DNA of 59,037 bases from Polyangiales bacterium (GCA_038324055.1 JBBQHO010000001.1:1-59037), one strand, 5' to 3'. Positions 7,222-40,091 are shown, numbered from the stretch's first letter. Notes: generated by a model from the letters alone, not told the origin. Program-made: numbers and translations.

Positions 7222-7252
7222 GGCTCTTGGCCGTTCGCTTCAGGCAGGTTCC

Positions 7253-10402: not shown

Positions 10403-10444
10403 GGGATTGTCTTTCGATTGGGGAACGAGTCGGCGGGCCGGCGA

Positions 10445-11521: not shown

Positions 11522-11577
11522 GGTGTTCTTGAAAAAGGGTGAGAGGTCGAACCAGAAACGAGGGGACGAGAAAGCGC

Positions 11578-14222: not shown

Positions 14223-15239
14223 GTGAGCGACTCCCACGACGCCGCACCCGGTCACGCCCACGGGGGCCACGGCCACGGCCACAGTCACGCGCACGGCCAC
14301 GGTCACGCGGGCACGGCACAGCGCACGCTGGGGCTAGCGCTTGCCCTCACGACCGCGTTCTTGGTCGTCGAGGCGTGCGTTGGGTTCTGGAGCGGCAGCC
14401 TTGCTCTCCTGGCAGACGCCGGACACATGCTGGCCGACGCAGCCTCCCTCGGTCTGGCCGTGATCGCGCAACGCTTTGCGGCCCGTCCTCGTACGGCGCA
14501 AAGCACCTTTGGCTTGCGCCGTGCCGAGGTGTTGGCGGCGTTCGTGAACGGCATGACGCTCACCGCTGTCGCTGCACTGATCGTGAAAGAGGCGATTGAA
14601 CGTTGGGTCGAACCGGTCGCCATCGATGCCGTGCCGGTTCTCTGGACCGGTAGTCTGGGCCTGTTGGTCAACCTATTCGTGGCCTGGCTTCTGTCGCGCG
14701 CCGCAACGCAGAACGTCAACGTGCGTGCGGCCATGGCTCACGTTCTCAGCGACGCTTTGGGTTCGGTCGGAGCCATCCTGGCCGGCGCATGCGTGCTCTG
14801 GGCCGACTGGACCCGAGCCGATTCGCTCCTCTCTACGCTGATCGCCATCTTGGTCGCTCGGAGCGGCTACCGCGTGCTGCGCGAGACCTCGACCATCTTG
14901 CTCGAGGGTGCGCCCAAGCACCTCGACGTGAGCGCCATCGAACGCACCATCGGCGATACCCCTGGCGTACTGGACGTCCACGACCTGCACGTGTGGCAAA
15001 TCTCGGAAAACTTCGACGCACTGTCCGCTCACATCGTGATCGAACGCGGCCACCACGGTACCGAGATGTGCCGCCTCGTCGCCGCGCGCCTCAAGCAGGA
15101 CCACCGACTCGAACACGTCACGATCCAACCCGAGCCGCAGCCACCGGACGAAGTGGTGCAGGTGCGTCGGAGCGTGAATGGCGACACTCTCGCCTGCGCT
15201 CAGTCTTCGCCAGGTCGCTCGAGCCCCACCAGCCGGTAG
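14223..15239 (+). CDS. cation diffusion facilitator (CzcD/ZitB-like) metal efflux transporter with His-rich N-terminus
   Basis: N-terminus HAHGGHGHGHSHAHGHGH. TM2 motif LLADAGHMLADA, TM5 motif HVLSDALGS, and a C-terminal domain DVHDLHVW. GTG start. Confidence 0.9.
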   Translation: MSDSHDAAPGHAHGGHGHGHSHAHGHGHAGTAQRTLGLALALTTAFLVVEACVGFWSGSLALLADAGHMLADAASLGLAVIAQRFAARPRTAQSTFGLRRAEVLAAFVNGMTLTAVAALIVKEAIERWVEPVAIDAVPVLWTGSLGLLVNLFVAWLLSRAATQNVNVRAAMAHVLSDALGSVGAILAGACVLWADWTRADSLLSTLIAILVARSGYRVLRETSTILLEGAPKHLDVSAIERTIGDTPGVLDVHDLHVWQISENFDALSAHIVIERGHHGTEMCRLVAARLKQDHRLEHVTIQPEPQPPDEVVQVRRSVNGDTLACAQSSPGRSSPTSR

Positions 15240-16996
15240 CCTGCCTTCGGTCCCAAGTCGTACAGGTGAGCGCGCAAGGGATGAGCGCTGGCGCCGTTGG
15301 CAATCGTCACCACGACATAGCGCGCTGGGTCGTCCGGCCGGACCGCCCCTTCTGGCGCGACGTGGGGAAGGGTCAGGCAAAGGGCACCTTGCGGGGCCGC
15401 CTTCACGTTGAGCGGCCGCGACTGTCCGGCATTGTCGAGCGTGGCGACGTAATGAAAGCTCGCCGCCGGGCGCAGTTCGCGGCGCCGCGCCCAGTCGGTT
15501 CCACAGAGCGAGCTGCCCCCGCGTACTTCCAGTTGAGCGAGCGGCGAGAGCACGAGCAGGTAGCGCTCGAGGATGCGCTGCAGGCGCCCTTGCAAGACGC
15601 GCGTCAAGTAGCTCTTGTGCGGCTCCTCGAACTTTCCGAGCTCGACGAAGGTATCGATATCTGCCCGCTCGAATCGCGCCAGGATGCGGGCCATCCAGGC
15701 GTTGTCGTGCTCGGTCGCGCGACTGAATGCCGGATTCGGGTACTCGTTCTTCCAGCCGTCGGGATCGAAATCGTAGGCGTGGAAGTACCCGAACATCTCT
15801 TCGCCCGGTGTGCGTTCGACCACGTCCCATCGTCGTCGCGGAATACCCAGGGTCACCAGATCCTGGGCGATATCAGCCCAATCGAGCAGATAGCTATGGC
15901 CGAGTCGCCGCGAGATGTCGTCCCAGACCCACTCGCTGCCCAGCGTGTCGCTGAAGTCCAAATAGTAGTGGCGCACGAAGCCTGGCGAGGAGTCTCCATC
16001 GTCGGGATTGGCTGCGATCCAGCTGTCCATCGAGTTCTGCTCGCGAGCATCGAAATGATCGACCCAGGCAGCCAACACGCGCGCTCCGCGGAGTTCGCGC
16101 CGGTCCTGGTGAGGAATGACGTCATTCGGATCGTCGGCGCGCGTGTCCTGATACGAAAACGGCCCAAGCAGATTGCCCTCGAGCCAAGCGCTGGCCTGCA
16201 TGCGCACCAGATCGCCTTTGCGTAGGCCGTTGTCGACGATTCTCTGCAGAGCCGCTTCGTCCAGTGGCTTGATTACGCCGCTGTTGTCAGTCGTCGTCAG
16301 GCCCGGCTTGAGCTTGAGAACCTTCGGATCGAAGTAGACGACTTGCTCGCACGAGGTGTTGAAACCCACCGCGTTGTAGATGGCCGCACCGATCACCGCG
16401 GCGGCGGAGCTCTTCGGACTCTTGTCGGACTTGAGCATGTACTTCTTGCCGCCGATCCGAACCCGAAAACCGGGAGTCGAGCCGTCGCTCTTGCCCTTGT
16501 CGACCAGCCAACTGGCGGTCTCGGCATTCTCGGGGTCGAGCATGTCCTCGGGCTCGCAGGCGCCGAGCGCCAGGGCCGCGGCACGTTCGGCGCCTTCTTT
16601 GCTCGGGCGGTTGGTGAACCAGGCGCTGTCGGGGACTTCGTCGAGAGCGTTGACGTTGACGGCCGCGCCTGGCGGATCGACCTTCCAGAAGCGCGAAAAC
16701 GGCAAGAAGATCGAATTGTCGACCGCGTCCCAGGCGAGCGGCGAGACGTAGGGCTCCGGGGTGCATGACTTCTCTTCCGCGGACTCACCATCGTTGCGCT
16801 GACAATTGGCCTGGTAGGCGCGCATGTCCGTGTCGACGAGCAGCGGAGCGCGCAGCGGAAAGCGCGGAGGCTCGGACGCACAGGCAGCCAGTAGACAAGT
16901 CGCGGCAGCAGCGGCAGCAGCCGCCGCCAGTCGTGGAGAGAGCCGCCCCGCGAGTACGGCTGAGCACCAACCGAAGCGATGGCGATTAGAAGTCAT
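15200..16996 (-). CDS. cassette A: ~598 aa lipoprotein with a putative protein-kinase-like core; paralog of 29863..31638
   Basis: The start at 16996 gives a poly-Ala signal peptide ending LLAAC (lipobox). Blocks shared with the paralog: RFPL, NVNALDEVPDSAWFTNR, DDPNDVIPHQDRRELR, WVDHFDAREQN, LDFSD, GYRLVGLERP. Confidence 0.8.
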   Translation of the reverse strand: MTSNRHRFGWCSAVLAGRLSPRLAAAAAAAAATCLLAACASEPPRFPLRAPLLVDTDMRAYQANCQRNDGESAEEKSCTPEPYVSPLAWDAVDNSIFLPFSRFWKVDPPGAAVNVNALDEVPDSAWFTNRPSKEGAERAAALALGACEPEDMLDPENAETASWLVDKGKSDGSTPGFRVRIGGKKYMLKSDKSPKSSAAAVIGAAIYNAVGFNTSCEQVVYFDPKVLKLKPGLTTTDNSGVIKPLDEAALQRIVDNGLRKGDLVRMQASAWLEGNLLGPFSYQDTRADDPNDVIPHQDRRELRGARVLAAWVDHFDAREQNSMDSWIAANPDDGDSSPGFVRHYYLDFSDTLGSEWVWDDISRRLGHSYLLDWADIAQDLVTLGIPRRRWDVVERTPGEEMFGYFHAYDFDPDGWKNEYPNPAFSRATEHDNAWMARILARFERADIDTFVELGKFEEPHKSYLTRVLQGRLQRILERYLLVLSPLAQLEVRGGSSLCGTDWARRRELRPAASFHYVATLDNAGQSRPLNVKAAPQGALCLTLPHVAPEGAVRPDDPARYVVVTIANGASAHPLRAHLYDLGPKAGYRLVGLERPGED

Positions 16997-18335
16997 ACGA
17001 CGACCCGATGGTGAGGCGCACGGAGTCGATCTGACCTCCAGTCTCGAAAGGATTGGACCCAAAGCCTAGAACTGCCTGGAACTCGGACTCGCCCGTGGTG
17101 CGGCTCTGAATCGCGAACGCCGCAGAATAGCGCAGCAAGCCTGGCCGAAATTCAGCTAGATGCTTGTCAAACACGTTGCCCATCTCGAAACGCAAGCTGC
17201 CGTCGAGCCAGACCCAGATGGGCCAGCGATAGGTCAGGCTGAGCGCCGCCGCGCTCCGACCGACCAGACGTCCAGCGTAAAAACCGACGAGCGCGTCGCT
17301 GTCGCCACCCAGCGCCACCAGCTCCGTGAACGGCACGACGGAGTTGCCGACTTCATCCACGAAGCGAGCGCCCGCAGCGAGCGACAACACGCGATGGTGG
17401 CCGTCCAAGTCCACGAAACCGCCCGCGATGCCTCCGTAGCGCACCCAGCTGCCCTGATTCTCGAGGTCAGCCGAATGTCGCAGATTTGCCTGCAGACGTA
17501 CTCCCGACGCGGGACGCTCCGGATTGCGCGTGTCGAGCACTAGACGCAATTCCGAGCGCGCTTCGGTGTAGCCGCGATCGATCAGCGCTGGCAGCGGAAC
17601 GCTCCCCGCGGCCAGCGCATTTTGCAGCGAAGGATCATCGGCGTCGCCCAGGCCTGGGCGGAAATTCACGTCGCGGAGCGCGACCTGCGCATTGAAGGTG
17701 CTCATGCGCCAGAAGCGATGATCAACCACGGCCCGCGCCTGCAACGTCTGCATGCCGTAGCGGAGCGCGTCACTTTGTCGCGTCAGCGGACCGGTCCCAA
17801 AATAGAGGTAGTCCGGTCGTCGCAGTAGCGAGACGTCCCAGCCGATACGATCAAGCGGGGTGTTGGAGTAGCGGTAGCGCTCCGCCGCGCCCAGCGAGAT
17901 CCAGTTGTTCCCGGAAAACGAAGCGCGTGCTCGCAAGTCGTGACCGCGAAAGCCTGCATCATCCCAGAAGGCGTACAGACCGAAGCTGGGTTGAAAGCCC
18001 GAGTCTGCGAAAACCGTCGGAAAAACGCCGGCTTTGTGATCCGGACCAAAAGCAAAGAAGTCGTAGAGCAACGCCGGCACGCCAGCTTGCTCCGCCCCCG
18101 AGATCAGCTTGCCCAGCGGCCAGCGAATCCCGTACTCAGTGACGACGTAGACGGGGAACAGGAGCACGCGCGGTATCCACAGCAACTTGCGGCCCGTGCT
18201 GTCGGGCAGTTCGCGACCGTCGTAGTCGGGCAGCTCGCGCTTCTCGACCGCGCGCGCCCGCGCAGATCCAAGTAGCGTCGCCGCCAAAACACACAGGCCC
18301 AGTGCTCGGCCGATTCCGTCACGATACTTGCGCAT
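16986..18335 (-). CDS. cassette A: Omp85/surface-antigen-type outer membrane beta-barrel without recognisable POTRA; paralog of 28169..29860
   Basis: Start MRKYRDGIGRALGLCVLAATLLGSARARA is a signal peptide. KRELPDYDGRE and WIPRVLLFPVYVVTEYGIRWP are shared with the paralog. Alternating-hydrophobic strands end in ...LTIGSSYDF, with a terminal Phe beta-signal. The stop overlaps the lipoprotein start by 11 nt. Confidence 0.8.
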   Translation of the reverse strand: MRKYRDGIGRALGLCVLAATLLGSARARAVEKRELPDYDGRELPDSTGRKLLWIPRVLLFPVYVVTEYGIRWPLGKLISGAEQAGVPALLYDFFAFGPDHKAGVFPTVFADSGFQPSFGLYAFWDDAGFRGHDLRARASFSGNNWISLGAAERYRYSNTPLDRIGWDVSLLRRPDYLYFGTGPLTRQSDALRYGMQTLQARAVVDHRFWRMSTFNAQVALRDVNFRPGLGDADDPSLQNALAAGSVPLPALIDRGYTEARSELRLVLDTRNPERPASGVRLQANLRHSADLENQGSWVRYGGIAGGFVDLDGHHRVLSLAAGARFVDEVGNSVVPFTELVALGGDSDALVGFYAGRLVGRSAAALSLTYRWPIWVWLDGSLRFEMGNVFDKHLAEFRPGLLRYSAAFAIQSRTTGESEFQAVLGFGSNPFETGGQIDSVRLTIGSSYDF

Positions 18336-18623
18336 TGCGGCCTCGCAGCATCTGCCAGGGCGCGGGGAGATGCAATGAAAGCCGAACGCGTTGCGTCGCA
18401 CGCGCGACGTAGCCGCTGGGGCTCACGTTCGATTGATCAGCGGGTCGGTGTGGCAAGATGCCACGATGCGCACTGGCTTTGCTCCGTTCGTGACCCGCTG
18501 CCATCCCCTTGATGAATTGACAACGCGCAACGCGCGCCCAACGCTCGGCGCACACATCTGGCACCGCTCTCGATTCGTCACCTCCGAGCTTGGCTCCTGC
18601 CTTGCGTCGCACTTTTCACCAGC

Positions 18624-26315: not shown

Positions 26316-27158
26316 TCAGTCCGTCGCCCAGAGCCAGCGCATGCTGACTTCGAGCACGTCCCCGCCGATGCGGCCCAGAAAATCTGGACTGCTCACCACA
26401 GGCAAGATGCTGGTGCGCACCTGGAACTCGTCGGACAAGAGCCAGCGCACGTGCAACCCTGCCCGCACGATGCCGACCTGGCGCTCTGCGAGCCAGACGA
26501 TTTCAACGGTGGGCGACACGCCGATGTTGGTCCCACGAAGGAAGAACTCGACGCCGAGCCGTTGGCGGAGAGTGAGTCCGGAACCGATCACCACCGCCAT
26601 CGTGTCGAGATAGAGGTTGTTGTCCTCCGGAAATCCGAAGGCGACGATCGGCTGCGTCTCCGAACGCAACTTGAGCGGCCCCAGCGGCAGGTAGAGTTCG
26701 AGTTGGCTGTCCCACAGCCAGTATTGGGCGCGCGGACCTTCGAGGATGTCGATGTCGCGGCGCGTGTAGCTGTCCTTGGCCGTCAAGTACGAACGATTGA
26801 ACGAGAACTGGTAGAGCGCGCCCGAGCGGAGCTCGAACAAGCCGCGCTCGATCCGGCCGCCCATGTAGCCGCCCAGGGCGCTGGTCGAAAGGATGGGTAC
26901 AGCGTCCAGACCGACCCATTCGTAGTGCGGCTTGCCCCAGCCCGCCGAGATGCGTGGGCGCAGAAAGAAAAAACCTGCGTCGAGGCGAGAAGCGACGAAC
27001 CAGCGATCGGTCGAGTTTCGCCAACGGCTGCCCGGCGGGGAGCCGAGCGGGTTGTCCGCAGAGTCACCGGGGCCCGTCGACAGGCCTTGAGCGTGCGCGG
27101 GCATCGACACGAGCAAGACGAATACAAGGACCGAAATCCACGAGAGCAGCGCCCGCAT
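26316..27158 (-). CDS. secreted beta-barrel-like outer membrane protein (280 aa)
   Basis: Start MRALLSWISVLVFVLLVSMPAHAQG is a signal peptide. Alternating amphipathic strands follow. Its ATG shares 1 nt with the PAP2 stop (TGATG). The upstream part of the 399 aa ORF is an overlap artefact. Confidence 0.7.
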   Translation of the reverse strand: MRALLSWISVLVFVLLVSMPAHAQGLSTGPGDSADNPLGSPPGSRWRNSTDRWFVASRLDAGFFFLRPRISAGWGKPHYEWVGLDAVPILSTSALGGYMGGRIERGLFELRSGALYQFSFNRSYLTAKDSYTRRDIDILEGPRAQYWLWDSQLELYLPLGPLKLRSETQPIVAFGFPEDNNLYLDTMAVVIGSGLTLRQRLGVEFFLRGTNIGVSPTVEIVWLAERQVGIVRAGLHVRWLLSDEFQVRTSILPVVSSPDFLGRIGGDVLEVSMRWLWATD

Positions 27159-28147
27159 CACCAGACCCCGCTGACCAACACGCCTTGAGGAGTGGGTAGA
27201 ACGTTGAAACTGACGCCGCTGATGGGCGAGTGCGGTGTCCAGCTGCCGATACCGTAGTGGAGCGCGGGCACGAGGAAACCGATCGTGGTGCCGACTGCTG
27301 CGCCCACGAGGACATCGGACGCGTAGTGCATGTCGCCGATCACGCGTAGACCGGCTGTTGCCGCGGCGCCGACGAAGCCGCTCAGGCACGGAATCCACGC
27401 TTGCCCATTGCTCAGCGGAATGGCCGAATGATGAGCGCAGGTCACGGCGGCCAACGCGAACGTAGCGGCCGAGTGGCCGCTGAAGTGGCTGAGGTAGCGG
27501 TCGTTCGTGATGCAAAACGACGAACGCTCGTCGAGTTCATTCGTGCCACACGTACGGCCGTAGGGGCGTTCGCGCGCGATCCCATGGGCCGCCAGCTGCT
27601 GGACACCCAAGGTGAGCGCCATGACTTCAACATCCAGCAGGGCAATTTCGGCACCGACGTCTGGGCTCTTTCGTAGCCAGGTGGCGTTGATCAGTGCGTC
27701 GCCGATGAAGGCGTAAGACATCGAAAATCCGAGCAAAACGTCGCTGGCGTCGCGAACGGCCAGTTGGGTAGTGTAATCGGTGGCACGCACTGCATCCCGC
27801 ACATCTTCGTCGAACAACACGCCGCCACGCGGCCCGAACTCGCGGTTGGGGCCTACAATGATGGAAACGAGCGCAGTTGCGCCACCCAGTCCGGTGACGA
27901 TGAGATCGGGGACGCCGAAGCGCGCGGCTGCGCTCGGGTAAACGACGGGAGCGAGGCTGCCCGGTCGGAGAATGATCTTGCCATCGGGATCGCCACCTGG
28001 AGTCGTCTTGCCCGTGGCGAGCGCTGGCTTGAACGGAACAACAACGGAAGGCTCGGCGTCCGCGGCGCGCGCGCAATCGATGCCAGCGATGCTTGGTACG
28101 AGCGACAGCCCGAGGCAGACGCAGGTGCTGGAGAAGAGGGAGCGCAC
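27158..28147 (-). CDS. PAP2-superfamily phosphatase, exported/membrane
   Basis: PAP2 motifs RERPYG (KxxxxxxRP-like), SHFSGHSA (PSGH) and RVIGDMHYASDVLVGA (SRxxxxxHxxxD). GTG 28147 gives the signal peptide MRSLFSSTCVCLGLSLVPSIAG. The ATG at 28330 would overlap the divergent gene. Confidence 0.8.
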   Translation of the reverse strand: MRSLFSSTCVCLGLSLVPSIAGIDCARAADAEPSVVVPFKPALATGKTTPGGDPDGKIILRPGSLAPVVYPSAAARFGVPDLIVTGLGGATALVSIIVGPNREFGPRGGVLFDEDVRDAVRATDYTTQLAVRDASDVLLGFSMSYAFIGDALINATWLRKSPDVGAEIALLDVEVMALTLGVQQLAAHGIARERPYGRTCGTNELDERSSFCITNDRYLSHFSGHSAATFALAAVTCAHHSAIPLSNGQAWIPCLSGFVGAAATAGLRVIGDMHYASDVLVGAAVGTTIGFLVPALHYGIGSWTPHSPISGVSFNVLPTPQGVLVSGVW

Positions 28148-28168
28148 GAGGAATGAAACCTGAGATGG

Positions 28169-29860
28169 ATGAGCGTCGTGATTGACTCGATGGGGCGTTC
28201 GATGTTGCCTGAGGCCGTGGCGGTCGTGTTGCGCTGGTTCTGGTCGTATCTCGTCGTCGTTGGCTTCGCCGTGCCTGCGGCTCGCGCCCAAGAACGAGTC
28301 GTCCCACCCACGCCCGCCGAGGATGGACAAGATGACCTCCCGGCGCCAGCACCAGTGCCCGTGACTACGGAGCCTCGGGCGGAGCTGCCAGAAGCGGACC
28401 CTCCGTCACAAAAGCCCAACCCTGCGACGCCCGATAGGGCTCCCGACGCGCTGCCCGTCGAGCCCCAGGACGACCTCCGGACGGCCCTGGCCGACGTCGA
28501 GCAGACAGGGTCACCCCCCCAGCCCCCCGCGGAAGGAACCAGCGAGCCGGCCAACGAAAAGGACCTGCCTCCCGAGCAAAAGCGCGAGCTGCCGAACTAC
28601 GATGGCCGCGAGGCGCAGCAGACCGACGCGGGCGACATCGTGCGCTGGATCCCACGCGTAGCGCTCTACCCCGCGTATCTATTTCTCCAGTACGGCATTC
28701 GGACGCCGACAGTCTGGGCAATCGCAAAGGTGGAAGAGACGCATCTGGCCGACAAGGTCACTGACTTTTTCACTTGGGACGAAGGCCAAGCTTACGCGTT
28801 TCCAGTCGCGACCTTCGACTTTGGCTTGCGACCCAACGTAGGGGCGATCTTCCACTGGACCGAGATGATCCCGCGCCACGATTTCGCAGCCACGTTCTTT
28901 GCGGGGCCCGGAGACCTGTGGGCGACCGGCGCGCAAGTCGATCAGAAACTGTTCCGCGACGAAGGCGCGCTGATCCGTTGGCGCGGTGGCTACGTGCGGC
29001 GACCCGACAACCCGTTCTTTGGCGTCAGCGATCTGAGCGCTCGCTGCAATCAGCTGGACTTCGGCTGCCGCTACCGCAGCGCCATCGCCGAAGCCAGCGT
29101 GAGCCTGGTGGGTTGGGAGAAGCAGCTGAACAGTCTCAGCTTCGGTACGACGTTTCGGCACGCCCGTTTCTCGACGGAAGAAACGGACAATCCGCCACTC
29201 ACGCCCACCGAAACCGCCGCCCTGCCCGCCTTCACGAATGGCTACCAGATCCTGCAGCCCGAGCTGAATTTCACTATCGACAACCGCCACGAAGATCTCG
29301 ACTTCGCGCGCGGCACGGGCTTGCGACTCGAGGGGCTCACCTCCTTCGCCGTCGACGTGCAGGAACCCAGCAGGCGCTGGTTTCGTGCTGGTGGCCAACT
29401 CGCTGCGTTCTACGACTTGGGCTTCGGTCAGATCTTGTCGACGAGTCTGTACTACCAAGGTGTACTCAATGTGAGCCGGCTCGAGGGCAGCACATCGACG
29501 CGCGCGCCCATCCCCTTCTACGAGCTGCCGTTCTTGGGTGGCCAAGACCAGATGAAGAGCTTCTTGCGACGACGCCTCATGGGCGCCAATGCCTGGGCTG
29601 CCAACTTCGAGTACCGCTACCCGATCAGCTGGGGTCTGGATGCGGCTTTGTTTTCGAGCATCGGCAACACCTACGACGATCTGCGTGAGTGGAATTTGGT
29701 CAAGAGCTACCTGAACTACGGCTTGGGATTGAAGCTGGCTACCGATCGTGTCTCGGCCTTCGAGGCCGTCGTCGGTTGGGGCTCCAATCGTCTCGACGAG
29801 GTCCGCTTCGATCCTTTCGATCAGTTCCGCTTGGCCTTCGGAGTCAGCAGGGGGTTTTGA
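28169..29860 (+). CDS. cassette B: Omp85/surface-antigen-type beta-barrel with Pro/acidic-rich N-terminal extension; paralog of 16986..18335
   Basis: Signal peptide ...VVVGFAVPAARAQ (the start may be 28190 or 28202). A ~110 aa Pro/Glu/Asp linker follows, then KRELPNYDGRE, WIPRVALYPAYLFLQYGIRTP, FLGGQDQM-type Omp85 loop and C-terminus RLAFGVSRGF. Confidence 0.8.
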   Translation: MSVVIDSMGRSMLPEAVAVVLRWFWSYLVVVGFAVPAARAQERVVPPTPAEDGQDDLPAPAPVPVTTEPRAELPEADPPSQKPNPATPDRAPDALPVEPQDDLRTALADVEQTGSPPQPPAEGTSEPANEKDLPPEQKRELPNYDGREAQQTDAGDIVRWIPRVALYPAYLFLQYGIRTPTVWAIAKVEETHLADKVTDFFTWDEGQAYAFPVATFDFGLRPNVGAIFHWTEMIPRHDFAATFFAGPGDLWATGAQVDQKLFRDEGALIRWRGGYVRRPDNPFFGVSDLSARCNQLDFGCRYRSAIAEASVSLVGWEKQLNSLSFGTTFRHARFSTEETDNPPLTPTETAALPAFTNGYQILQPELNFTIDNRHEDLDFARGTGLRLEGLTSFAVDVQEPSRRWFRAGGQLAAFYDLGFGQILSTSLYYQGVLNVSRLEGSTSTRAPIPFYELPFLGGQDQMKSFLRRRLMGANAWAANFEYRYPISWGLDAALFSSIGNTYDDLREWNLVKSYLNYGLGLKLATDRVSAFEAVVGWGSNRLDEVRFDPFDQFRLAFGVSRGF

Positions 29861-29862
29861 GC

Positions 29863-31638
29863 ATGTCCACGCCACAACGAACCGCAACGCGAACCTGGCT
29901 CGGTGTGTGTCTCTTGTTCTCGCTCGCCTGTAGCCGCGAAGTGCGCCGCTTTCCCTTGGCACCGCCGCTGTGGAGCGACGCGGACCAGCGACCGCTCGCC
30001 GAACAGCCCGACGACTACTATTCCGGCATCCGCGCTGACGCAGTCGACAAATTATTGCTCTATCCGCTCAGCAACATCGCCTCTCTCCCCCGTGACGGCG
30101 AGGCCCTGAACGTCAACGCCCTCGACGAAGTCCCCAACAGCAGCTGGTTTCAGAATCGCGTGGGTGTCTTTGACTACACGCCCGCGCAGATTGCCCGCGC
30201 AGAATGCGGCGACACGCCCGAACTCGATCCTGCAAACGGAAAGTGGTTGGTGGTCAACGCCAAGCCCGACGGCGCGAACCCAGGGTTTTTCATCAAAGCG
30301 CCAGACGGACACCGCTACCTGCTCAAGTTCGACGGCAAGAGTCAGCCGTTGCGCGCCTCCACCGCTGATGTCGTCGGATCCAAGCTGTATTGGGCTCTCG
30401 GCTACCATTCGGTCTGCAACGAAGTCGTCTACTTCGAGCCAGACAATTTAGTGATGGCGAAGGGCGCCATCACCAAGACCGCGCTGGGCGAAGAGCGACC
30501 GATGACCCAGAACGACATCGCCACCGTCTTGGCCCAGGGTTTTCGCCTCAAGGATGGCCGTGTGCGCGCATCGGCCAGCCGCTTCGTCCCCGGCAAGCCG
30601 CTCGGTCCATTCAAATACGAAGGCACTCGCTCCGACGATCCAAACGATGTGGTGCCGCACGAGGATCGCCGCGAGCTCCGCGCTGCGCACTTGCCCGCGG
30701 CTTGGATCAACCACATCGATGCGCGCGAGCAGAACACCTTCGACGTCGTAGTCGAAGAAGCGAAGCGAAAGTTCATTCGTCACTACATGATCGATTGGGG
30801 TGACTCCCTGGGCATCGGTTTCAATCCCGATCGCTTGGCACGACGCTTCGGGCACTCCTACGCCATCGATTTCGAGCAAATTGCTGAGGATTTCGTCAGT
30901 TTTGGTCTGCTGAAGCGACCGTGGCACGACCCCCACCGCAGCAAGGTGCAGATCTTTGGCTACTACGCCGTCGATGGTTTCGTGCCTTCGGAGTGGCGCG
31001 GCGTCTACTCGATTCCCGCGTTCAGCAAGCGCACACCAAATGACGTCTCGTGGATGACGCGCATCATGTCGCGTGTCACCGACGCGCACATCCAAGCCAT
31101 TGTCGCCCGCGCCAAGCTGCCCGACGAGCGCCAGTCGCTCTACCTGGAACGAGTGCTCATCGGCCGACGCGACAAGTTTTTCGAAGAGTATTTCTCCAAG
31201 TACCTGCCGCTCTCGGGATTTCGGATGGCCCGGCGTACGCCGGGCGAGACAAAGCAGTCTCTCTGTTTCGAAGATCTCGGCATCCAGCATGGGGTATCCA
31301 AGGCGTTCGAGACCTACTACCAGCTACGCTTTCGCGGCGGACTCGACCTGGAAAAGGAACTCGGTTGGGTGCAGTTCATGCCCGACGCAAAGCATCCGAC
31401 CTGGGCGTGCGTCGTGCTGCCCCTGGGCGACGTGCGCCCCGCGCAACTGGCCGGTGATGGCGCCTACGACGACGATCCGCGGAGGTACGGAGTCATGGAC
31501 CTCTGGGTGCACCAAAAGCCCACCGTACTACCCATGGGTCAGGTCCGGCTCCACTTCTACGATCTCGGCGAGAGCCGTGGCTATCGCTTGGTGGGCATCG
31601 AACGGCCTCGCGAAGTTCGCGTCCCGCTGGACTACTGA
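29863..31638 (+). CDS. cassette B: ~591 aa lipoprotein with a putative protein-kinase-like core; paralog of 15200..16996
   Basis: MSTPQRTATRTWLGVCLLFSLAC contains a lipobox. The ATG lies 2 nt after the barrel stop. Motifs: GANPGFFIK, RYLLKFD, WINHIDAREQN, MIDWGDSLG, GYRLVGIERP. Confidence 0.8.
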   Translation: MSTPQRTATRTWLGVCLLFSLACSREVRRFPLAPPLWSDADQRPLAEQPDDYYSGIRADAVDKLLLYPLSNIASLPRDGEALNVNALDEVPNSSWFQNRVGVFDYTPAQIARAECGDTPELDPANGKWLVVNAKPDGANPGFFIKAPDGHRYLLKFDGKSQPLRASTADVVGSKLYWALGYHSVCNEVVYFEPDNLVMAKGAITKTALGEERPMTQNDIATVLAQGFRLKDGRVRASASRFVPGKPLGPFKYEGTRSDDPNDVVPHEDRRELRAAHLPAAWINHIDAREQNTFDVVVEEAKRKFIRHYMIDWGDSLGIGFNPDRLARRFGHSYAIDFEQIAEDFVSFGLLKRPWHDPHRSKVQIFGYYAVDGFVPSEWRGVYSIPAFSKRTPNDVSWMTRIMSRVTDAHIQAIVARAKLPDERQSLYLERVLIGRRDKFFEEYFSKYLPLSGFRMARRTPGETKQSLCFEDLGIQHGVSKAFETYYQLRFRGGLDLEKELGWVQFMPDAKHPTWACVVLPLGDVRPAQLAGDGAYDDDPRRYGVMDLWVHQKPTVLPMGQVRLHFYDLGESRGYRLVGIERPREVRVPLDY

Positions 31639-31720: not shown

Positions 31721-33127
31721 TCAGCCGGCCGTAGCGGGCTCTTTGCCGGGCTCGTCACCGGCCGATTTCGTGCGTTCCGCGTAGGCCTTGCCCAAGCGGA
31801 AGGCGACCCACAACCAAACCGCGACCAAGGCAGCGTTGACCGCGGCAAACAAGGACAAGGGTGCGTGCAGCCAACGCAGGCCTACGAACACCAGGCCGGC
31901 GCTGAACACGTCGCCAGCTCGCACGAAGATCGTGTCGACGACCTGCTTGGCCTTGTACTTTTCTTCGGCGGTGAGCGGTAAGAACAGCGCGTTGCGCACC
32001 GTGTTGTTCAGCGAATAGTCAAAAGCGTTCTCGGCCGTCTTGGCCCAGCGCACGGTCCAGAGCACCGGAAGGAACGCCACCCCAAGATAGCCGAACAACG
32101 CTACAGCGGGCAGAACGAGCAGCGCTACGCGAACGCCCAGATGGCGGATGAAGCGTGGCGCGATGACGAGTTGAATGAAAGCACCCAGCAAGTTCACCCA
32201 AAAATAGAAATTCGAGTAAAACTGCCCGATCCAGACCTTGACCTGGTCCCCACTGACGACGCGCGCCGCTTGTTCCGAAGCGAAGCTGCCCAGCAAGAAC
32301 TCACCCGTGGTGTTGACCAAGTTGCTCAGCAACATGAGCACGCCGATGAGCCGCAGGTAGGGGCTCTGGATGACGAGCTGGAACGCGCCAGCGCCGCTGT
32401 TCGTCTCCTTTTCCGCCTCCTGCTTCTTCTTGCTCTCGGGGCCTTCCTCGACCGCTTTCGCTGCGCGTGCGCTGAAGTACTCCGACGCCAACGTCAGCAG
32501 CAGCGCTCCGATCAAGAGGACGCCGCTCACCAACAGCATCTGCGGCACACCTAGCGGGCCGACGAGTAGGCTGGTCAGCTCGCTACCCGCTACCGCTCCC
32601 GACGAAGCGCCGAAAGCCACGATCGGAAACAGACGTTCGCCCTGCTCGCGCGAGTAGAGATCACTGGCAAAGGCCCAGAACTGCGCCACCACCATCAGAT
32701 TGAAGATGCCGACCCAGAGGAAAAACACGATCCCAAGTCCAGGCATTTGCGCTTTGGCAGCGAAGTAGAACGCCACCAGGCAGCCGACGAAGATGAACGT
32801 GACCGTGCGAATCAACTTGGCGCGGTCGAAGTGATTCACCAGCCACGAGTAACCGGGCACGATCAACGCCAGCAGCACCACCTGGCCGACCGCCGCATAG
32901 CTTTTGATCTCGGCTCCTCCACCCGACAGAATCAACGCTTCACGCACGGGCTTGAGCACGTAGTAAGCGCACAAAAGCAGACAGACGTTGAGTGCGAGTA
33001 ACAGCGCAGACGCGCCCTCTCCCCTCCGCACGATGGTCAGGAGGCCGAGTGCGCGATCGATCCAAGAGAGCGACGCCGAGTCTTTGGAAGGCTCGGCCGC
33101 TTTGCTGTCCGTCATGCCCTCAGGCAA
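31721..33127 (-). CDS. TLC-family (ATP/ADP translocase-like, Npt-type) MFS transporter
   Basis: About 12 TM helices. YYVLKPVREALIL and VAQFWAFASDLYSREQGERLFPIVAFGASSG resemble the TLC signature (QFW.FAN.I...EEAKRFYPLFG). The start could be 33127 or 33115. Confidence 0.8.
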   Translation of the reverse strand: MPEGMTDSKAAEPSKDSASLSWIDRALGLLTIVRRGEGASALLLALNVCLLLCAYYVLKPVREALILSGGGAEIKSYAAVGQVVLLALIVPGYSWLVNHFDRAKLIRTVTFIFVGCLVAFYFAAKAQMPGLGIVFFLWVGIFNLMVVAQFWAFASDLYSREQGERLFPIVAFGASSGAVAGSELTSLLVGPLGVPQMLLVSGVLLIGALLLTLASEYFSARAAKAVEEGPESKKKQEAEKETNSGAGAFQLVIQSPYLRLIGVLMLLSNLVNTTGEFLLGSFASEQAARVVSGDQVKVWIGQFYSNFYFWVNLLGAFIQLVIAPRFIRHLGVRVALLVLPAVALFGYLGVAFLPVLWTVRWAKTAENAFDYSLNNTVRNALFLPLTAEEKYKAKQVVDTIFVRAGDVFSAGLVFVGLRWLHAPLSLFAAVNAALVAVWLWVAFRLGKAYAERTKSAGDEPGKEPATAG

Positions 33128-33488
33128 CCATGACGAACGAGCCCGTCAAAGCGGTCGCAGTCACAATCGCAAAGCACACCTGCTTGAGCCCCCGGGCGCG
33201 CACCGACCTGAGCTCGGCGGTGTTGGCGATGCGCTCACTGCCGCAACCCGTTTGTCGGAAGCCAGCCCATGCAGAAAAGCCACAGGTCTGAAACATGCCC
33301 TGAAAAAAGCCGTTGGCCGAAAGGAAGAACGGCACCAGCAAGACCCAGCGCAGGCTAGGGCTCGCGCCACTCCGCTCCAAGGTGACAGCCAGAGCCAAGC
33401 CCAGGCCCAGGGCCACAATGCCGAACCTGAGGCGTCGCGCCACATTGACGTCGGCCAAGTTGCCAGCGAGTTCGTTTCCGGAAGCCAT
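33120..33488 (-). CDS. small membrane protein (DUF2892/YgaP-like, weak)
   Basis: NVARRLRFGIVALGLGLALAV and FFQGMFQTCGFSAWAG resemble the DUF2892 pattern. The start could be 33488 or 33524. Its end overlaps the TLC gene start. Confidence 0.5.
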   Translation of the reverse strand: MASGNELAGNLADVNVARRLRFGIVALGLGLALAVTLERSGASPSLRWVLLVPFFLSANGFFQGMFQTCGFSAWAGFRQTGCGSERIANTAELRSVRARGLKQVCFAIVTATALTGSFVMVA

Positions 33489-33540
33489 AGCTACTACTGT
33501 AGCCAGAGCGAAAGGGGCGCGCATCCCCCCCTCCGAGTCG

Positions 33541-36276
33541 ATGCCTCAGGCCAGCAGCTTTCCCGCCCGGACCAGTTCACGTCCGCCAGCAACTCCCGGA
33601 TTTTGGCAACGTTTTGCCGACGTTCGCCCGGGCGAGGGCTGGCTGGTGGCGGGCGCGTGCGTGGTTTTGGGCGGGATCGTGGGCGCGCACGTGCTGCTCG
33701 AGACCGCCCGGGACGCCCTTTTTCTAACTAAGCTGAAACCGAGCGCCCTGTCCCTGGTCTACATCGCCATGGCGGTCCTGGGCTTCGTGACCGCGCGCGC
33801 CGACCAAATGGTCAGTCGCGTGTTCGGTCGAAAGAACGCCCTCGTTCTGGCGCTCATGGTCGCCTCGACCGGCACGTTGCTTTTTTACACGAGCACCATC
33901 GGCAAGGCTGGTGCGTTCGCGCTGTACCTATGGGCGGGCGTGATTGGCACGCTGCTGACGGTTCAATTCTGGCTCACTGCGGCGCAGCGCTTCACGCCCG
34001 GACAGGGGCGGCGCATCTACGGTCTTTTGTCGGCCGGAGGCGTTCTGGGCGCAGTGATCGGCGGCGTCATCGGTGCGCTGTTGGCGCAAGGGCTGTCCGT
34101 GAAAAGCCTGTTGCCTGCATCGGCGGCAATGCACTTGCTTACTGCGTTGGTCGTGACTTTCGCGCCACCCGCGACCGAGCTTGCGCCAGCGCCCGAAAAG
34201 GCAAAAGTCGGCGCAGAGATCCGAGCGGTTCGCTCGAATGCCTACCTCGCACGCGTCGGCATTCTGATTCAGCTGTCGGGCGCGACGCTGCTCATCGTCG
34301 ACTACTTGTTCAAGTCCGTGATGGCCACCCGGCTGCCGCCCTCCGACCTCGGCATCTACCTGGCGCGTTACTACGCCATCATGAATGCCGTCGCGCTGAT
34401 CGTGCAGGTGTTCGTCACCATGCAGGTGCTGCAGCGCATGGGCACCATTTTGGCGCTCACCCTGTTACCCTTGTGTCTGCTCTTGTCCGGAGCGGCTGGT
34501 TTGTTCTTCGGAACGGCGATGTTGGCGGTACTGCTCGCCAAGGGTTCGGACGGCGCCCTACGCTTTTCACTGCATCGCGTCTCGACCGAGCTGTTGTTCC
34601 TGCCACTGAGCAACGAGGAGCGTACCAAGGCCAAACCCTTGTTCGATTCGGTGCTGGCGCGCGGTACTCAGGCCCTCATTGCGGTCGTGATCCTGGTTCT
34701 CAATCAGTTTCACCTCGCCAGCAACAACGTCCTGGGGACCTTGATCGCCAGCCTGTCGCTGCTGTGGATTCTGGTCGCCTGGTCACTTCGCGCACCTTAC
34801 TTGGAGCGCTTTCGCTCGACGCTCGGTGGCCAGGCGCGCGCTCGTTCGTTCGAGCTGCTGCAACTGAATCTCGACAGCGTAGTCGTGTTGGTTGAAGCAC
34901 TGTCGAGCCCGGACGAAAATCGAGTGATTGGCGCCATGAGTCTGTTTCACGAAGGGCGTCGCAGCAATCTGATTCCTGCGCTGGTGCTTTACCACCCAAG
35001 CCCGCGCGTGCTGGCTCGCGCGCTCGAGGTCATTCCTGCGCCCGGACGGAAAGATTGGGTTCCGCTCGCAGAGCGATTGCTGCAGCACGACGACCGCGAA
35101 GTCCGACTCGCTGCCATCCGCGCCCTGGGCTCGAGCGGCTACATGGACCGCATCGATCCTTCGGCGTTCTCGGATATGGCGGGGCTGCGCGCCACGGCCG
35201 CCTTCTTCGTGGCCGGCCAGTCCGCAGTTCCTCGCAACGAAACTTCTGTTGCCGAGTTCTTGGCCGAGGACGCCGACCCCCAGGGGCAACTGGCCCTACT
35301 CGAAGCCATCAGCAAGCTTGGCACGGCGCGCTGGGCCGACGTCGTGCTCGAACTCCAGAAGCGCGGGCGCCGTGAACTCGATCGCGTGTTGCCACTCGCA
35401 ATGGCTCGCACTCGTGACTTACGCTTCGTCCCGCTACTCATTCAGCGCCTGGCTCATCGGGAGGGCCGCAATGAGGCGCGTGAAGCTCTCGCGGCGCTTG
35501 GCGCTCCCGCGCTCGAAGCGCTCCGTTCCGCTCTTGACGATCGCACGACCGATCCGGCCGTACGCCTGCACATTCCCCGCGCTATTTCACGTTTTGGTTC
35601 GCACTCCGCGGGCGAGATGCTGGTCCACATGCTGTCGCAGGACCTGCCGGGCGCCGTACGCTACAAGGCACTGCGCGGCTTGGGCCGCGTGGTGTCGACC
35701 AGCGATTTCTCCGTCGATGCAGCGCGTATCCTGCCGGTGATCGAGCAGAACCTGGTTGAGTACGCGCGCATCGAGATGTCGCTGCGCATCTTGGGTGAGC
35801 GCGCCGGCCCCACGCCTTTGAGTGGCGTCCTGTTCTTCGGGCTACTGGCAGACAAGCGGCGCCAGGCGCTCGAACGCGCCACGCGCCTGTTGCAACTTCT
35901 CCACCCGCGCGAGGATCTGCGCCGGGTCTACTACGCGCTCTTGTCGGACGAAGGCTCCAATCGCGTGGCCGCCGCCGAAATTCTCGAAGTCACGAGCCTG
36001 GGCTACGGTGAGACGCTGCGGAGCCTGTTGCGCGTCGCCGCCGAGCCGCGCCAAGACCTGGCCCCCCTCGAAAGCTACGCCAGCGCGCTTTCCATTCCGG
36101 TGCCGCACGAGGTGGATACGCTCCGAGAGCTGATGGCCAATGCCGATCCGCTCGTTTCGGCCTTGGCCGCGTCCTACGCCATGGAACTCGAGAACAGCGA
36201 ACTCGCATCTGCCATCGAAGCTGCCACCAGCTGCAATGCGTGGCTGATCGAACACTCCAACGCGAGCATGCGATGA
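33541..36276 (+). CDS. TLC-like MFS transporter fused to a C-terminal HEAT/ARM-repeat domain
   Basis: The N-terminal half has multiple TM helices, with LLETARDALFLTKL and TVQFWLTAAQRFTPGQGRRIYGLLSAGG (TLC-like). The C-terminal ~480 aa has HEAT-like units (DDREVRLAAIRALGSSG, DPAVRLHIPRAISRFG, VRYKALRGLGRV). The Arg-rich extension from 33313 was rejected. Confidence 0.8.
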   Translation: MPQASSFPARTSSRPPATPGFWQRFADVRPGEGWLVAGACVVLGGIVGAHVLLETARDALFLTKLKPSALSLVYIAMAVLGFVTARADQMVSRVFGRKNALVLALMVASTGTLLFYTSTIGKAGAFALYLWAGVIGTLLTVQFWLTAAQRFTPGQGRRIYGLLSAGGVLGAVIGGVIGALLAQGLSVKSLLPASAAMHLLTALVVTFAPPATELAPAPEKAKVGAEIRAVRSNAYLARVGILIQLSGATLLIVDYLFKSVMATRLPPSDLGIYLARYYAIMNAVALIVQVFVTMQVLQRMGTILALTLLPLCLLLSGAAGLFFGTAMLAVLLAKGSDGALRFSLHRVSTELLFLPLSNEERTKAKPLFDSVLARGTQALIAVVILVLNQFHLASNNVLGTLIASLSLLWILVAWSLRAPYLERFRSTLGGQARARSFELLQLNLDSVVVLVEALSSPDENRVIGAMSLFHEGRRSNLIPALVLYHPSPRVLARALEVIPAPGRKDWVPLAERLLQHDDREVRLAAIRALGSSGYMDRIDPSAFSDMAGLRATAAFFVAGQSAVPRNETSVAEFLAEDADPQGQLALLEAISKLGTARWADVVLELQKRGRRELDRVLPLAMARTRDLRFVPLLIQRLAHREGRNEAREALAALGAPALEALRSALDDRTTDPAVRLHIPRAISRFGSHSAGEMLVHMLSQDLPGAVRYKALRGLGRVVSTSDFSVDAARILPVIEQNLVEYARIEMSLRILGERAGPTPLSGVLFFGLLADKRRQALERATRLLQLLHPREDLRRVYYALLSDEGSNRVAAAEILEVTSLGYGETLRSLLRVAAEPRQDLAPLESYASALSIPVPHEVDTLRELMANADPLVSALAASYAMELENSELASAIEAATSCNAWLIEHSNASMR

Positions 36277-39999: not shown

Positions 40000-40091
40000 C
40001 GCGCGACCGTAGGCGAGCCCGCGTACCCTGTACAAGTGGCCGCTTCGCGTCGCCAAAGCCAACCGGACCTCCTAGGCTCGACACCAGCCTC

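Follow-up and report, generated by a model that had tools for sequence, protein, structure and literature searches.

The outer-membrane barrels most similar to the one described here are the 'noNterm' Omp85 proteins, which are 16-stranded and devoid of POTRA domains (Heinz & Lithgow 2014, PMC4104836). They come as multiple paralogs per genome (Leptospira LIC12252/12254/12258, PMC11358297), and in several groups a lipoprotein gene of the Big/integrin or DUF1566 type is located immediately downstream. An outer-membrane barrel coupled to a specific partner, often co-transcribed, is also found in TpsB/TpsA, SLAM and BamA-RcsF. TpsB has two POTRA domains and a cargo with a TPS domain, SLAM is a DUF560 barrel, and RcsF relies on the general BAM machine; none of the three handles a kinase. 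Among kinases, CtkA (H. pylori JHP940), HipA-like proteins, Fam20 of the secretory pathway and PI4KIIalpha have a catalytic logic of Lys, DxxxxN and DFG in common, and Fam20 and CtkA function outside the cytosol of the cell that makes them. NTT-type carrier genes have been reported in free-living Deltaproteobacteria without a known role, and the NTT-HEAT class was called uncharacterised (Major et al. 2017, PMC5381601).

Here, we analysed a window of 59,037 nt from a Polyangiales bacterium (GCA_038324055.1 JBBQHO010000001.1:1-59037), which contains two cassettes, each consisting of a barrel gene and a lipoprotein gene. In cassette B, on the plus strand, the ORF of barrel B (28169..29860, 563 aa) ends with a TGA at 29858-29860 and is followed by lipoprotein B (29863..31638, 591 aa), a predicted exported protein-kinase-like enzyme. 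The 2-nt spacer between stop codon and ATG ('gc', 29861..29862), already noted in the sequence-only reading, is consistent with translational coupling and recurs in another locus (L001). Cassette A resides on the minus strand and comprises barrel A (16986..18401, start probably near 18338) and lipoprotein A (15200..16996, 598 aa, lipobox LLAA-C). Here the lipoprotein ORF begins before the barrel gene has ended, its ATG falling within the final 11 nt, which gives an 11-nt overlap instead of a 2-nt gap. The barrel starts are 9.8 kb apart, in good agreement with the earlier description of a shared architecture on opposite strands at a distance of about 10 kb. Both the presence of paralogs and the lipoprotein gene directly downstream resemble the noNterm systems. 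The POTRA-less Omp85 barrel, the kinase-fold lipoprotein and the NTT-type genes flanking cassette B had gone unrecognised in that reading.

According to the AF2 model, Foldseek and the ortholog alignment, residues 206-563 of barrel B (28784..29857, plus strand) are predicted to form a 16-stranded beta-barrel with a C-terminal Phe; the 16 modelled strands lie between residues 208 and 561. Model confidence is moderate (pLDDT 68, from 16 sequences). Foldseek matches are TamA, BamA and Sam50 (E-values 5e-11 to 1e-7, probability 1.0), with TamA giving the best one (4.6e-11) and Sam50 and BamA ranging from 1e-9 to 1e-7. The NCBIfam model Omp85_fam (NF047779) matches weakly over residues 454-526 (5.5e-5) and, with 22.8 bits, stays below its curated cut-off of 200. 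A Pfam search returned no match for barrel B itself, PF01103 included; this domain is precomputed for 13 of its 16 orthologs, and one ortholog is named as a BamA/TamA family member. Strands 11 and 12 are connected by a long loop with an MKSF/(L/M)(R/K)GF motif, which reads MKSF in B, MKGF, LRGF or MRGF in orthologs and LVGF in A; it may correspond to the loop-6 lid-lock motif (V/I/L/M)RG(F/Y) of the Omp85/TpsB superfamily, which has a partner motif on the barrel wall. By the strand count of the AF2 model, an invariant F414-x-D416-x-G418 is found on strand 10, and D491...G499-N500 on strand 13.

In the N-terminal 205 residues, a POTRA domain was found neither by Pfam nor in the AF2 model. This part is made up of the signal peptide and a disordered tail, followed by a single helical segment. 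Alignment and AF2 model point to a conserved, presumably periplasmic module in the place of POTRA (28577..28783, plus strand, residues 137-205), in which a KRxxP(D/N)YDGR motif precedes a hydrophobic helical segment (helix 154-201, pLDDT 70-86). Residues W160, P162, R163, P168, R178, P180 and E189 are invariant in the barrel ortholog alignment, and the module is common to barrels A and B by BLASTP. On the strength of its model, barrel B is thus predicted to be an Omp85-superfamily outer-membrane barrel without POTRA domains. It differs from the noNterm proteins in its N-terminus, where the disordered tail leads into the YDGR motif and the hydrophobic helix; the DUF5982 module of the Leptospira/Cytophagales group is unmatched in barrel B (zero Pfam matches).

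The signal peptide of barrel B was read from the sequence (28169..28288, plus strand, residues 1-40, ending in VPAARA before QE). Alternative starts are ATG 28190 or 28202, and an 88% identical ortholog (P0121) has the same N-terminus. Between the signal peptide and KRELPNYDGRE, a tail of 96 aa (28289..28576, plus strand, residues 41-136) was delimited by composition, GC3, pLDDT and orthologs. It contains 25% Pro and 21 acidic versus 6 basic residues, its GC3 of 0.72 is like that of the remaining gene, and residues 27-139 are predicted to be disordered (pLDDT <50). The tail is also present in the barrel B orthologs, with a semi-conserved motif L..AL...D.TG(S/T)P..PP. The sequence-only reading had described a Pro/acidic segment of about 110 aa as an addition to B that A lacks. 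The segment is real, at 96 aa, but it is not specific to B: across the barrel family, low-complexity tails of 11-162 aa precede the (K/R)xxP(D/N)YDGR motif, and barrel A with 11 aa is the short outlier. The tail may serve as a flexible spacer in the periplasm, with a different length in each paralog.

Lipoprotein B starts with a signal peptide and lipobox (29863..29931, plus strand, LFSLA-C23) with Ser at position +2. The lipobox Cys is found in 155 of 232 family members, 130 of which have A, G or S at position +2; Lys never occurs there, and the +2 residue is by sequence a sorting residue of the outer-membrane type. Two cysteine pairs are either both present or both absent in nearly all sequences, namely Cys115/185 (138 of 141) and Cys468/Cys516 in the C-terminal domain (135 of 141). 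The covarying pairs, which are of disulfide type, together with the lipobox mark the lipoprotein as a predicted exported protein. When clustered at 50% identity, the family falls into no fewer than 2,300 clusters, the majority from Myxococcota.

The AF2 model of lipoprotein B is of high quality (pLDDT 92, pTM 0.91). Its top Foldseek matches are Fam20, CtkA, PI4KIIalpha and Vps34 (E-values 1.5e-4 to 1e-2, probability 0.9-1.0), which PMC3974213 names as one structural cluster. The low TM-scores (0.2-0.5) stem from the multidomain nature of lipoprotein B. The elements of the model follow a kinase-like order of beta1-3, helix, catalytic loop, beta7-8 and DFG. This order and the motifs delimit a kinase-like catalytic domain (30235..31203, plus strand, residues ~125-447) with a G-loop (G137/G141), the beta3 Lys K155 (codon 30325-30327), an acidic alphaC residue (D169), the catalytic loop H284-I-D286-A-R288-E-Q-N291 (30712-30735) and the DFG-type motif D311-W-G (30793-30801). 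In 141 diverse representatives drawn from the clusters at 50% identity, K155 is kept in 132, D/E169 in 119, D286 in 136, N291 in 133 and D311 in 138. Conservation of the G-loop, the beta3 Lys, HxDx(R/K)xxN and the DFG-type Asp amounts to 92-98%, and that of all PKL catalytic motifs including the alphaC acidic residue to 84-98%. The catalytic motifs are invariant in an alignment that includes lipoprotein A, and both lipoproteins of the window retain all catalytic residues; the family consensus is LNHxDxRxxN...YLxDFG. Sub-functionalisation of the two copies, called probable in the sequence-only reading, is regarded here as a possibility.

Sequence comparison on its own gives only a weak assignment as a kinase: a Pfam search gave no match for lipoprotein B, and the best PDB match of the family profile is CtkA with an E-value of 0.036. 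No Pfam or NCBIfam model covers the family. Among 62 members, Pfam signals recur only for HipA_C and HipA_2 (PF07804/PF20613); these matches lie on the N-lobe and stay below the gathering threshold in the 7-8 members concerned (best 7.9e-4, 17.5 bits versus 27); CtkA/HipA-like proteins are thus the sole sequence-level signals for the family. Unlike HipA, lipoprotein B is encoded with an Omp85 barrel and has no HipB-type antitoxin beside it. Identity to CtkA, HipA, Fam20 and PI4KIIalpha is about 10-13%. Compared with these kinases, the family adds the lipoprotein anchor, a conserved N-terminal extension of ~100 aa, a DDPNDxxPHEDRRELR block (residues 258-273) and a C-terminal beta-sandwich domain (31210..31617, plus strand, residues 450-585; AF2 strands 450-580), which matches Asf1-like sandwiches in Foldseek. 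Judged by the model, lipoprotein B is predicted to fold like kinases of the CtkA/HipA/Fam20/PI4KII type, and all of its catalytic motifs are intact. In this respect it differs from the partner lipoproteins of the noNterm barrels.

Barrel and lipoprotein form a nearly obligate pair. Of the testable loci, about 67 of 76 from GTDB and all 19 from metagenomes have the two genes directly side by side, and a kinase lipoprotein without a barrel within 6 kb was found in 9 of the 76. The members of the pair also co-diverge. In a mirror-tree comparison, the kind of test that the sequence-only reading had suggested, their distance matrices correlate with r = 0.87, a value reached in none of 2000 Mantel permutations (0/2000); differential identity to A versus B shows a Spearman correlation of 0.72 between barrels and lipoproteins.

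Downstream of cassette B and convergent with it, 82 nt from the lipoprotein stop, lies an NTT/TLC-type carrier homolog, TLC1 (31721..33127, minus strand, 468 aa), a polytopic protein with ~10-12 hydrophobic segments in a crude hydropathy scan. It matches Pfam TLC (PF03219; 58.4 bits, cut-off 21) and MFS_1, and its best PDB sequence match is the ADP,ATP carrier 9j3n (E 2.7e-8). Compared with characterised ATP/ADP translocases TLC1 is very distant: TIGR00769 matches with E 9e-13 and 47.9 bits against a trusted cut-off of 387, and with a score so far below the cut-off of this NTT equivalog the substrate is not inferable. The next gene encodes an NTT-HEAT fusion protein (33313..36276, plus strand, 987 aa; Pfam TLC, MFS_1 and HEAT_2). 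Both flanking genes thus match Pfam TLC, and the NTT-HEAT architecture agrees with the described class.

The pair is linked to NTT/TLC nucleotide-carrier homologs in both directions. A TLC-like gene occurs within 400 nt of the kinase gene in 26 of 80 loci, in varied order and orientation; reciprocally, a kinase gene lies within ~1.5 kb in 30 of 80 loci of the TLC1 type, and near the TLC1-type gene in 9 of the 24 loci that extend for at least 3.5 kb to either side. The order barrel, kinase, NTT, NTT-HEAT is recurrent. An NTT gene adjoins only about a third of the kinase loci and is not found beside cassette A. In the literature searched, no link between NTT-type genes and an exported kinase with an Omp85 barrel was found. 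The linkage to NTT-HEAT (9 of 80 and 11 of 80 loci in two locus sets) and to PAP2 genes is looser. In the window, a PAP2-family phosphatase (27158..28330, minus strand; Pfam PAP2 5e-11) is divergent from barrel B, and its real start is probably downstream of 28330, since the 5' end of the ORF overlaps the start of barrel B. PAP2 is conserved beside the B orthologs in L003 and L084 and occurs in 13 of 80 loci; in the metagenome set it is near-absent (2 of 80). Downstream of it follows a small secreted protein (26316..27152, minus strand, 278 aa, signal peptide) to which no family was assigned. It travels with PAP2, adjoining it in L003, L041, L068 and L084 (tblastn).

Taking sequence, model and neighbourhood together, we consider it an evenly balanced proposition that lipoprotein B is a kinase of the cell envelope that docks to its own barrel and is possibly supplied with ATP by an NTT-like carrier, which would exchange cytoplasmic ATP for periplasmic ADP. 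The barrel would be a dedicated outer-membrane partner that docks or assembles the lipoprotein, probably by means of its own N-terminal module and the conserved N-terminal extension of its partner. The lipoprotein would be an active ATP-dependent phosphotransferase in the periplasm or at the outer membrane, comparable to Fam20 and CtkA in acting outside the cytosol. Its substrate could be an envelope lipid or protein, and PAP2 may undo the modification. The host bacteria may thereby phosphorylate something outside the cytoplasm.

It is unlikely, in our judgement, that the POTRA-less barrel is instead a translocon comparable to TpsB, SLAM or BamA-RcsF, flipping or threading the lipoprotein to the cell surface or onto vesicles. 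Prey, neighbouring cells or extracellular substrates would then be the targets of the kinase, and the NTT genes would have some other role. A barrel gene followed by a cargo gene is the layout of two-partner secretion, CtkA as the closest structural relative is a secreted kinase, and the hosts are Myxococcota, many of them predatory. In Leptospira, the lipoproteins whose genes follow those of noNterm Omp85 proteins were proposed as surface adhesins (PMC11358297); in the same study, however, the extracellular dome over the barrel opening was argued to be unfavourable to transport. Moreover, the barrel lacks the POTRA domains used by TpsB proteins and retains the long loop of L6 type together with the lid region matching Omp85_fam, there is no TPS-domain cargo, and the lipoprotein shows high conservation where a typical effector would be polymorphic. 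The two-way NTT linkage would be left unexplained.

A further reading, which we likewise hold to be improbable, accepts the fold but not a protein kinase: the lipoprotein would be a lipid or small-molecule kinase, or perform nucleotide chemistry of the AMPylation or glutamylation type. The target could, for example, be the head group of an outer-membrane lipid, with the neighbouring PAP2 lipid phosphatase as opponent. This is in line with the lipid kinases PI4KIIalpha and Vps34 among the structural matches, the predicted lipid anchorage at the membrane, the PAP2 gene adjacent here and in the 13 loci mentioned, and an invariant charged block (D259, D262, H266, R269, R270, R273, R435) that is absent from standard protein kinases. 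The catalytic loop motif of Ser/Thr protein kinases is HRDLKPEN, and it is these enzymes that the Hx-D-x-(R/K)-x-x-N loop resembles most; in addition, the PAP2 linkage is far weaker than that to NTT genes, above all in the metagenome set.

Far less probable still is a specialised machine similar to BAM or TAM, in which the barrel, as an insertase paralog, would serve particular outer-membrane proteins, and the lipoprotein would be a non-catalytic accessory analogous to BamB-E, its kinase-derived fold being incidental. TamA, BamA and Sam50 are indeed the closest barrel structures, BAM uses lipoprotein partners, and noNterm Omp85 proteins were suggested to be possibly still engaged in OMP assembly (PMC4104836). 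Yet a pseudo-enzyme is not expected to keep Lys, Asp, Asn and the DFG Asp at the level seen in the 141 sequences, the lipoprotein is unlike any Bam lipoprotein, and the NTT linkage again finds no explanation.

The paralogs A and B are clearly diverged but genuine, as had been claimed. The barrels share 30% identity over 438 aa (BLASTP, E 8e-38), in an alignment that begins at residue 137 of B, past the low-complexity segment, and reaches the C-terminal Phe; the lipoproteins share 36% over 582 aa (E 4e-104). Since the barrel alignment starts at residue 137 and the lipoproteins align over 582 aa, the similarity extends beyond signal peptides and low-complexity regions and is far above chance. 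The postulated old age of the duplication agrees with more than 120 database clusters that are 49-93% identical to lipoprotein B, and thus nearer to it than lipoprotein A is, and another 120 that are nearer to lipoprotein A (56-90%). An explanation of the resemblance by recent repetition, misassembly or compositional noise has nothing in its favour and can practically be dismissed, given the low but full-length identities with such E-values, the separate orthologs of A and B in other genomes, and a 92-93% identical contig (L084) that keeps the layout around cassette B. Together, cassettes A and B represent two copies, which diverged long ago, of a widespread two-gene envelope module.

Returning to the envelope kinase docked to its barrel, the most complete version of this reading adds its fuel supply: an adjacent inner-membrane NTT-type carrier would exchange cytoplasmic ATP for periplasmic ADP, and the barrel-held kinase at the outer membrane would modify an envelope lipid or protein in free-living Myxococcota. 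To our knowledge, the periplasm is generally held to be free of ATP, which counts against an envelope kinase. The partial NTT adjacency and its absence at cassette A speak against fuelling by this carrier. As a whole, we regard this scheme as possible but doubtful. If true, it would be the first function of an NTT carrier in free-living bacteria and would represent a dedicated route around the ATP-free periplasm.

The POTRA-less Omp85 barrel and the exported lipoprotein with a kinase-like fold, as encoded in cassettes A and B, form a co-inherited, co-diverging pair. In cassette B, barrel B (28169..29860, forward strand, 563 aa) and lipoprotein B (ATG at 29863, end at 31638, forward strand, 591 aa) were re-located where the sequence-only reading had placed them, and the barrel stop codon TGA (29858-29860) is followed by 'gc' and the lipoprotein ATG. 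In cassette A on the reverse strand (barrel A, 16986..18401; lipoprotein A, 15200..16996), the lipoprotein ATG lies within the final 11 nt of the barrel gene. Judged from gene spacing, the 2-nt gap in B and the 11-nt overlap in A are consistent with a translational coupling of barrel and lipoprotein. The GC content of the window is 62-67%, and its nearest relatives are Polyangiaceae/Myxococcota metagenome bins.

The paralogy of both cassettes is genuine according to the protein alignments. In BLASTP, the barrels share 30% identity over 438 aa (E 8e-38), from residue 137 of barrel B to its C-terminal Phe, and the lipoproteins share 36% identity over 582 aa (E 4e-104). The alignments thus fall outside the signal peptides and low-complexity regions, to which the similarity might have been confined. 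The proposal that this is an old duplication is borne out as well, because separate orthologs of A and of B exist in other genomes and several genomes carry at least two barrel-lipoprotein pairs. Two pairs were even found side by side in some genomes (loci L036, L045, L081 and L141).

A barrel homolog adjoins the lipoprotein in approximately 67 of the 76 testable loci among 80 GTDB loci retrieved with the lipoprotein, nearly always upstream and on the same strand. It is also present in 19 out of 19 testable independent metagenome loci. The apparent lack of a barrel near 9 of 30 NTT-linked kinase genes in a tblastn search was dismissed as a sensitivity artefact, since the family HMM finds the barrel in 19/19 testable cases. 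For 63 pairs, the lipoprotein distance matrix correlates with that of the barrels at r = 0.87, a value reached by none of 2000 Mantel permutations. When species relatedness is partly cancelled by use of the A-versus-B differential identity, barrel and lipoprotein still correlate (Spearman 0.72, Pearson 0.91). The barrel is the faster-evolving partner, with a mean distance of 0.64 versus 0.53 for the lipoprotein. Exceptions in gene arrangement were observed: the order is reversed, kinase then barrel, in L021 and L073, and in nine GTDB loci no barrel lies within 6 kb of the kinase lipoprotein (L032, L034, L042, L050, L055, L061, L065, L067, L072). In L042 and L050 of these, a TLC-like gene occupies the upstream position in place of the barrel.

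Barrel B has no Pfam or NCBIfam match at threshold, and its sole family-model signal is Omp85_fam (5.5e-5, residues 454-526). Its orthologs carry PF01103, and one of them is named a BamA/TamA family protein. The AF2 model, built from a shallow alignment of 16 sequences and with a pLDDT of 68, shows disorder in residues 1-140, a hydrophobic helical segment in residues 154-201 and 16 strands in residues 208-561. Its Foldseek neighbours are TamA, Sam50 and BamA (E 5e-11 to 1e-7, probability 1.0). No POTRA domain is present in barrel B, which therefore falls into the 'noNterm' Omp85 bin of the scheme of Heinz and Lithgow (PMC4104836). The segment that replaces the POTRA domain carries the motif KRxxP(D/N)YDGR followed by WxPRxxxxPxxxxxEYGxRxP, both kept in A, B and orthologs. 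A word-index search with barrel B retrieved no more than 16 homologs, presumably because the index was swamped by the low-complexity tail, and barrel diversity was drawn from the loci instead.

The Pro/acidic extension that the sequence-only reading had assigned to barrel B is real: the extra segment comprises 96 aa with 25% Pro and 21 acidic versus 6 basic residues, has the same third-position GC as the rest of the gene and is predicted by AF2 to be disordered. Its interpretation as an addition specific to B, or as an innovation of the B clade, was rejected. In 59 barrels, the distance between the hydrophobic core of the signal peptide and the YDGR motif was taken as a measure of tail length. 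The lengths form a continuum of 11-162 aa, and the tail is rich in Pro/Ala/Glu/Ser/Thr everywhere; it is therefore a family-wide feature of variable length. By this measure, barrel B (104 aa) lies toward the long end and barrel A (11 aa) is the shortest. The tail may best be read as a flexible periplasmic spacer. A role of the acidic tail as a kinase substrate in the manner of Fam20 cannot be general, given the 11 aa of barrel A. Tails of the B-type clade share the short motif L..AL...D.TG(S/T)P..PP, located at 28480-28560 of the window (barrel B residues ~105-130); it is semi-conserved in B-type barrels of many contigs and may be a linear interaction motif.

Lipoprotein B has no Pfam, NCBIfam or PADLOC match, and single-sequence searches of the PDB gave no match either. 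Among 8,000 candidates scored in a 90%-identity cluster database, 1,295 clusters match lipoprotein B and 2,008 match lipoprotein A at E <= 1e-3, all of them unnamed or 'hypothetical'. At the 50% identity level, the family counts no fewer than 2,300 clusters (2,322 at E <= 1e-3), and GTDB species genomes contain at least 591 of its loci; among the 80 best of these, every one belongs to Myxococcota (Polyangia, Bradymonadia) or to an unclassified bin. A cultured Sorangium strain is one of the carriers (P0324). The family is covered by no Pfam or NCBIfam model. The AF2 model of lipoprotein B, based on a 92-sequence alignment, reaches a pLDDT of 92 and a pTM of 0.91. Its top PDB matches are Golgi casein kinase Fam20, H. 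pylori CtkA, PI4KIIalpha and Vps34, and the paper on the PI4KIIalpha structure describes PI4KIIalpha, CtkA and the Golgi casein kinase as the nearest analogues in structure (PMC3974213). The C-terminal 130 residues are modelled as an Asf1-like beta-sandwich. At the sequence level, the kinase signals are consistent, though weak. The A1 profile, which includes lipoprotein A, finds CtkA as its best PDB match (E 0.036, weak), a match lost with the A3 profile of 62 more divergent members, and HipA_2 and HipA_C, both weak and collinear with the N-lobe, are the only Pfam signals to recur in 62 diverse members.

The residues of lipoprotein B agree with a kinase fold, with the motifs standing in kinase order. 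A Gly-rich loop (G137, G141) comes first, the third strand ends with a Lys (YLLK155FD), and the helix after this strand bears an acidic residue (D169). Then come the catalytic-loop motif H284-I-D286-A-R288-E-Q-N291 and, two strands past the N291 motif, D311-W-G, where the family consensus is DFG. In 141 representatives drawn from the 50%-identity clusters, K155 is conserved in 132, D/E169 in 119, D286 in 136, N291 in 133 and D311 in 138. Cys115 and Cys185 are both there or both missing in 138/141 sequences, as are Cys468 and Cys516 in 135/141, which is the pattern expected of disulfides in an exported protein. Lipoprotein B has the lipobox LFSLA-C23 with Ser at +2, and among the 155 recognisable lipoboxes of the family, 130 have A, G or S at +2 and none has Lys there. 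By the +2-residue sorting rules of E. coli and M. xanthus, this suggests that the family is sorted to the outer membrane. From motifs and model we conclude that the lipoprotein is probably an exported protein with an intact kinase-type active site rather than a pseudokinase.

The pair is furthermore linked to NTT-type carriers. TLC1, an NTT/TLC-type carrier homolog (31721-33127, reverse strand; Pfam TLC 58 bits; best PDB sequence match an ADP,ATP carrier, 2.7e-8), lies downstream of and convergent to cassette B. It adjoins an NTT-HEAT fusion gene (33313-36276, forward strand), a class that is known but uncharacterised (PMC5381601). The 59-kb window has no TLC-like gene besides these two. A TLC-like gene lies at most 400 nt away in 26/80 kinase loci, with no fixed side or orientation. 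In the converse search with TLC1, the kinase gene was found within approximately 1.5 kb in 30 of 80 loci, mostly within 300 nt, and in 9 of the 24 loci that extend 3.5 kb or more to each side. Loci with the genes in the order barrel, kinase, NTT, NTT-HEAT were found repeatedly, and the link of kinase and NTT genes is systematic. Both types of TLC-like gene were also seen beside the kinase-lipoprotein family in unrelated contigs.

Upstream and divergent from barrel B, 26316-28330 (reverse strand) encodes a PAP2 phosphatase and then a small secreted protein (278 aa, no known family). The longest PAP2 ORF covers the first 160 nt of barrel B; its true start thus probably lies at a more downstream position, which would leave a very short divergent intergenic region. 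PAP2 is a weaker companion of the pair than NTT (13/80 GTDB loci, 2/80 in the metagenome set), and it occurs together with the small secreted protein in L003, L041, L068 and L084. In two metagenome contigs, L083 and L084 (Ga0105046_10000678), the whole block of small secreted protein, PAP2, barrel B, lipoprotein B, NTT and NTT-HEAT shows 88-93% protein identity, so the layout around cassette B is stable in close relatives. Divergent from cassette A lies a gene with Lnb_N, DUF7840 and DUF7843 domains (18624-20264, forward strand), which we take to be related to the Bacteroides lipoprotein N-acyltransferase Lnb. It was rejected as a partner, being absent beside the pair in all 160 related loci. 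The remaining content at 5332-12903 (reverse strand), an RND efflux operon (OEP, HlyD-type adaptor, AcrB-type pump) and then a MASE11 hybrid histidine kinase, is ordinary. Two ORFs without Pfam match, of 893 aa (37381-40062, reverse strand) and of 268 aa (Pro/Ala-rich, 25452-26258, forward strand), may or may not be real genes in this high-GC DNA. A promoter and terminator scan returned 0 promoters and terminator-like sites near shuffle expectation.

We propose a mechanism whose parts are given here in decreasing order of confidence. Most confidently, barrel and lipoprotein would form a complex at the outer membrane. The lipoprotein would act as an active nucleotide-dependent phosphotransferase, the NTT-type carrier would bring ATP into the periplasm in exchange for ADP, PAP2 would undo the modification and, least confidently, the substrate would be an envelope lipid or protein. 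Rival explanations are that the kinase is carried to the cell surface by the barrel, or that the enzyme is a lipid kinase or other non-protein kinase. A non-catalytic, BAM-like accessory is a poorer explanation, as the conserved active site counts against it.

The components come from known superfamilies. In our literature searches, neither an Omp85-kinase lipoprotein pair nor its NTT linkage nor a dedicated supply of ATP to the periplasm was described. Of the arrangements on record, that of Leptospira comes closest, in which a noNterm Omp85 is followed downstream by a lipoprotein (PMC11358297). A periplasmic ATP-fed kinase system, the less likely case, would be categorically new. Three questions meet at this locus: the role of POTRA-less Omp85 proteins, the use of NTT and NTT-HEAT proteins in free-living bacteria, and extracytoplasmic ATP-driven phosphorylation in bacteria. 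A large family known to annotation only as 'hypothetical' nevertheless has a predicted kinase active site of the textbook kind. If true, the proposed module would be a new envelope enzyme system; if the kinase is surface-exposed, it would instead be a new kind of Omp85-dependent cargo. Under either outcome, the lipoprotein family is worth naming and testing.
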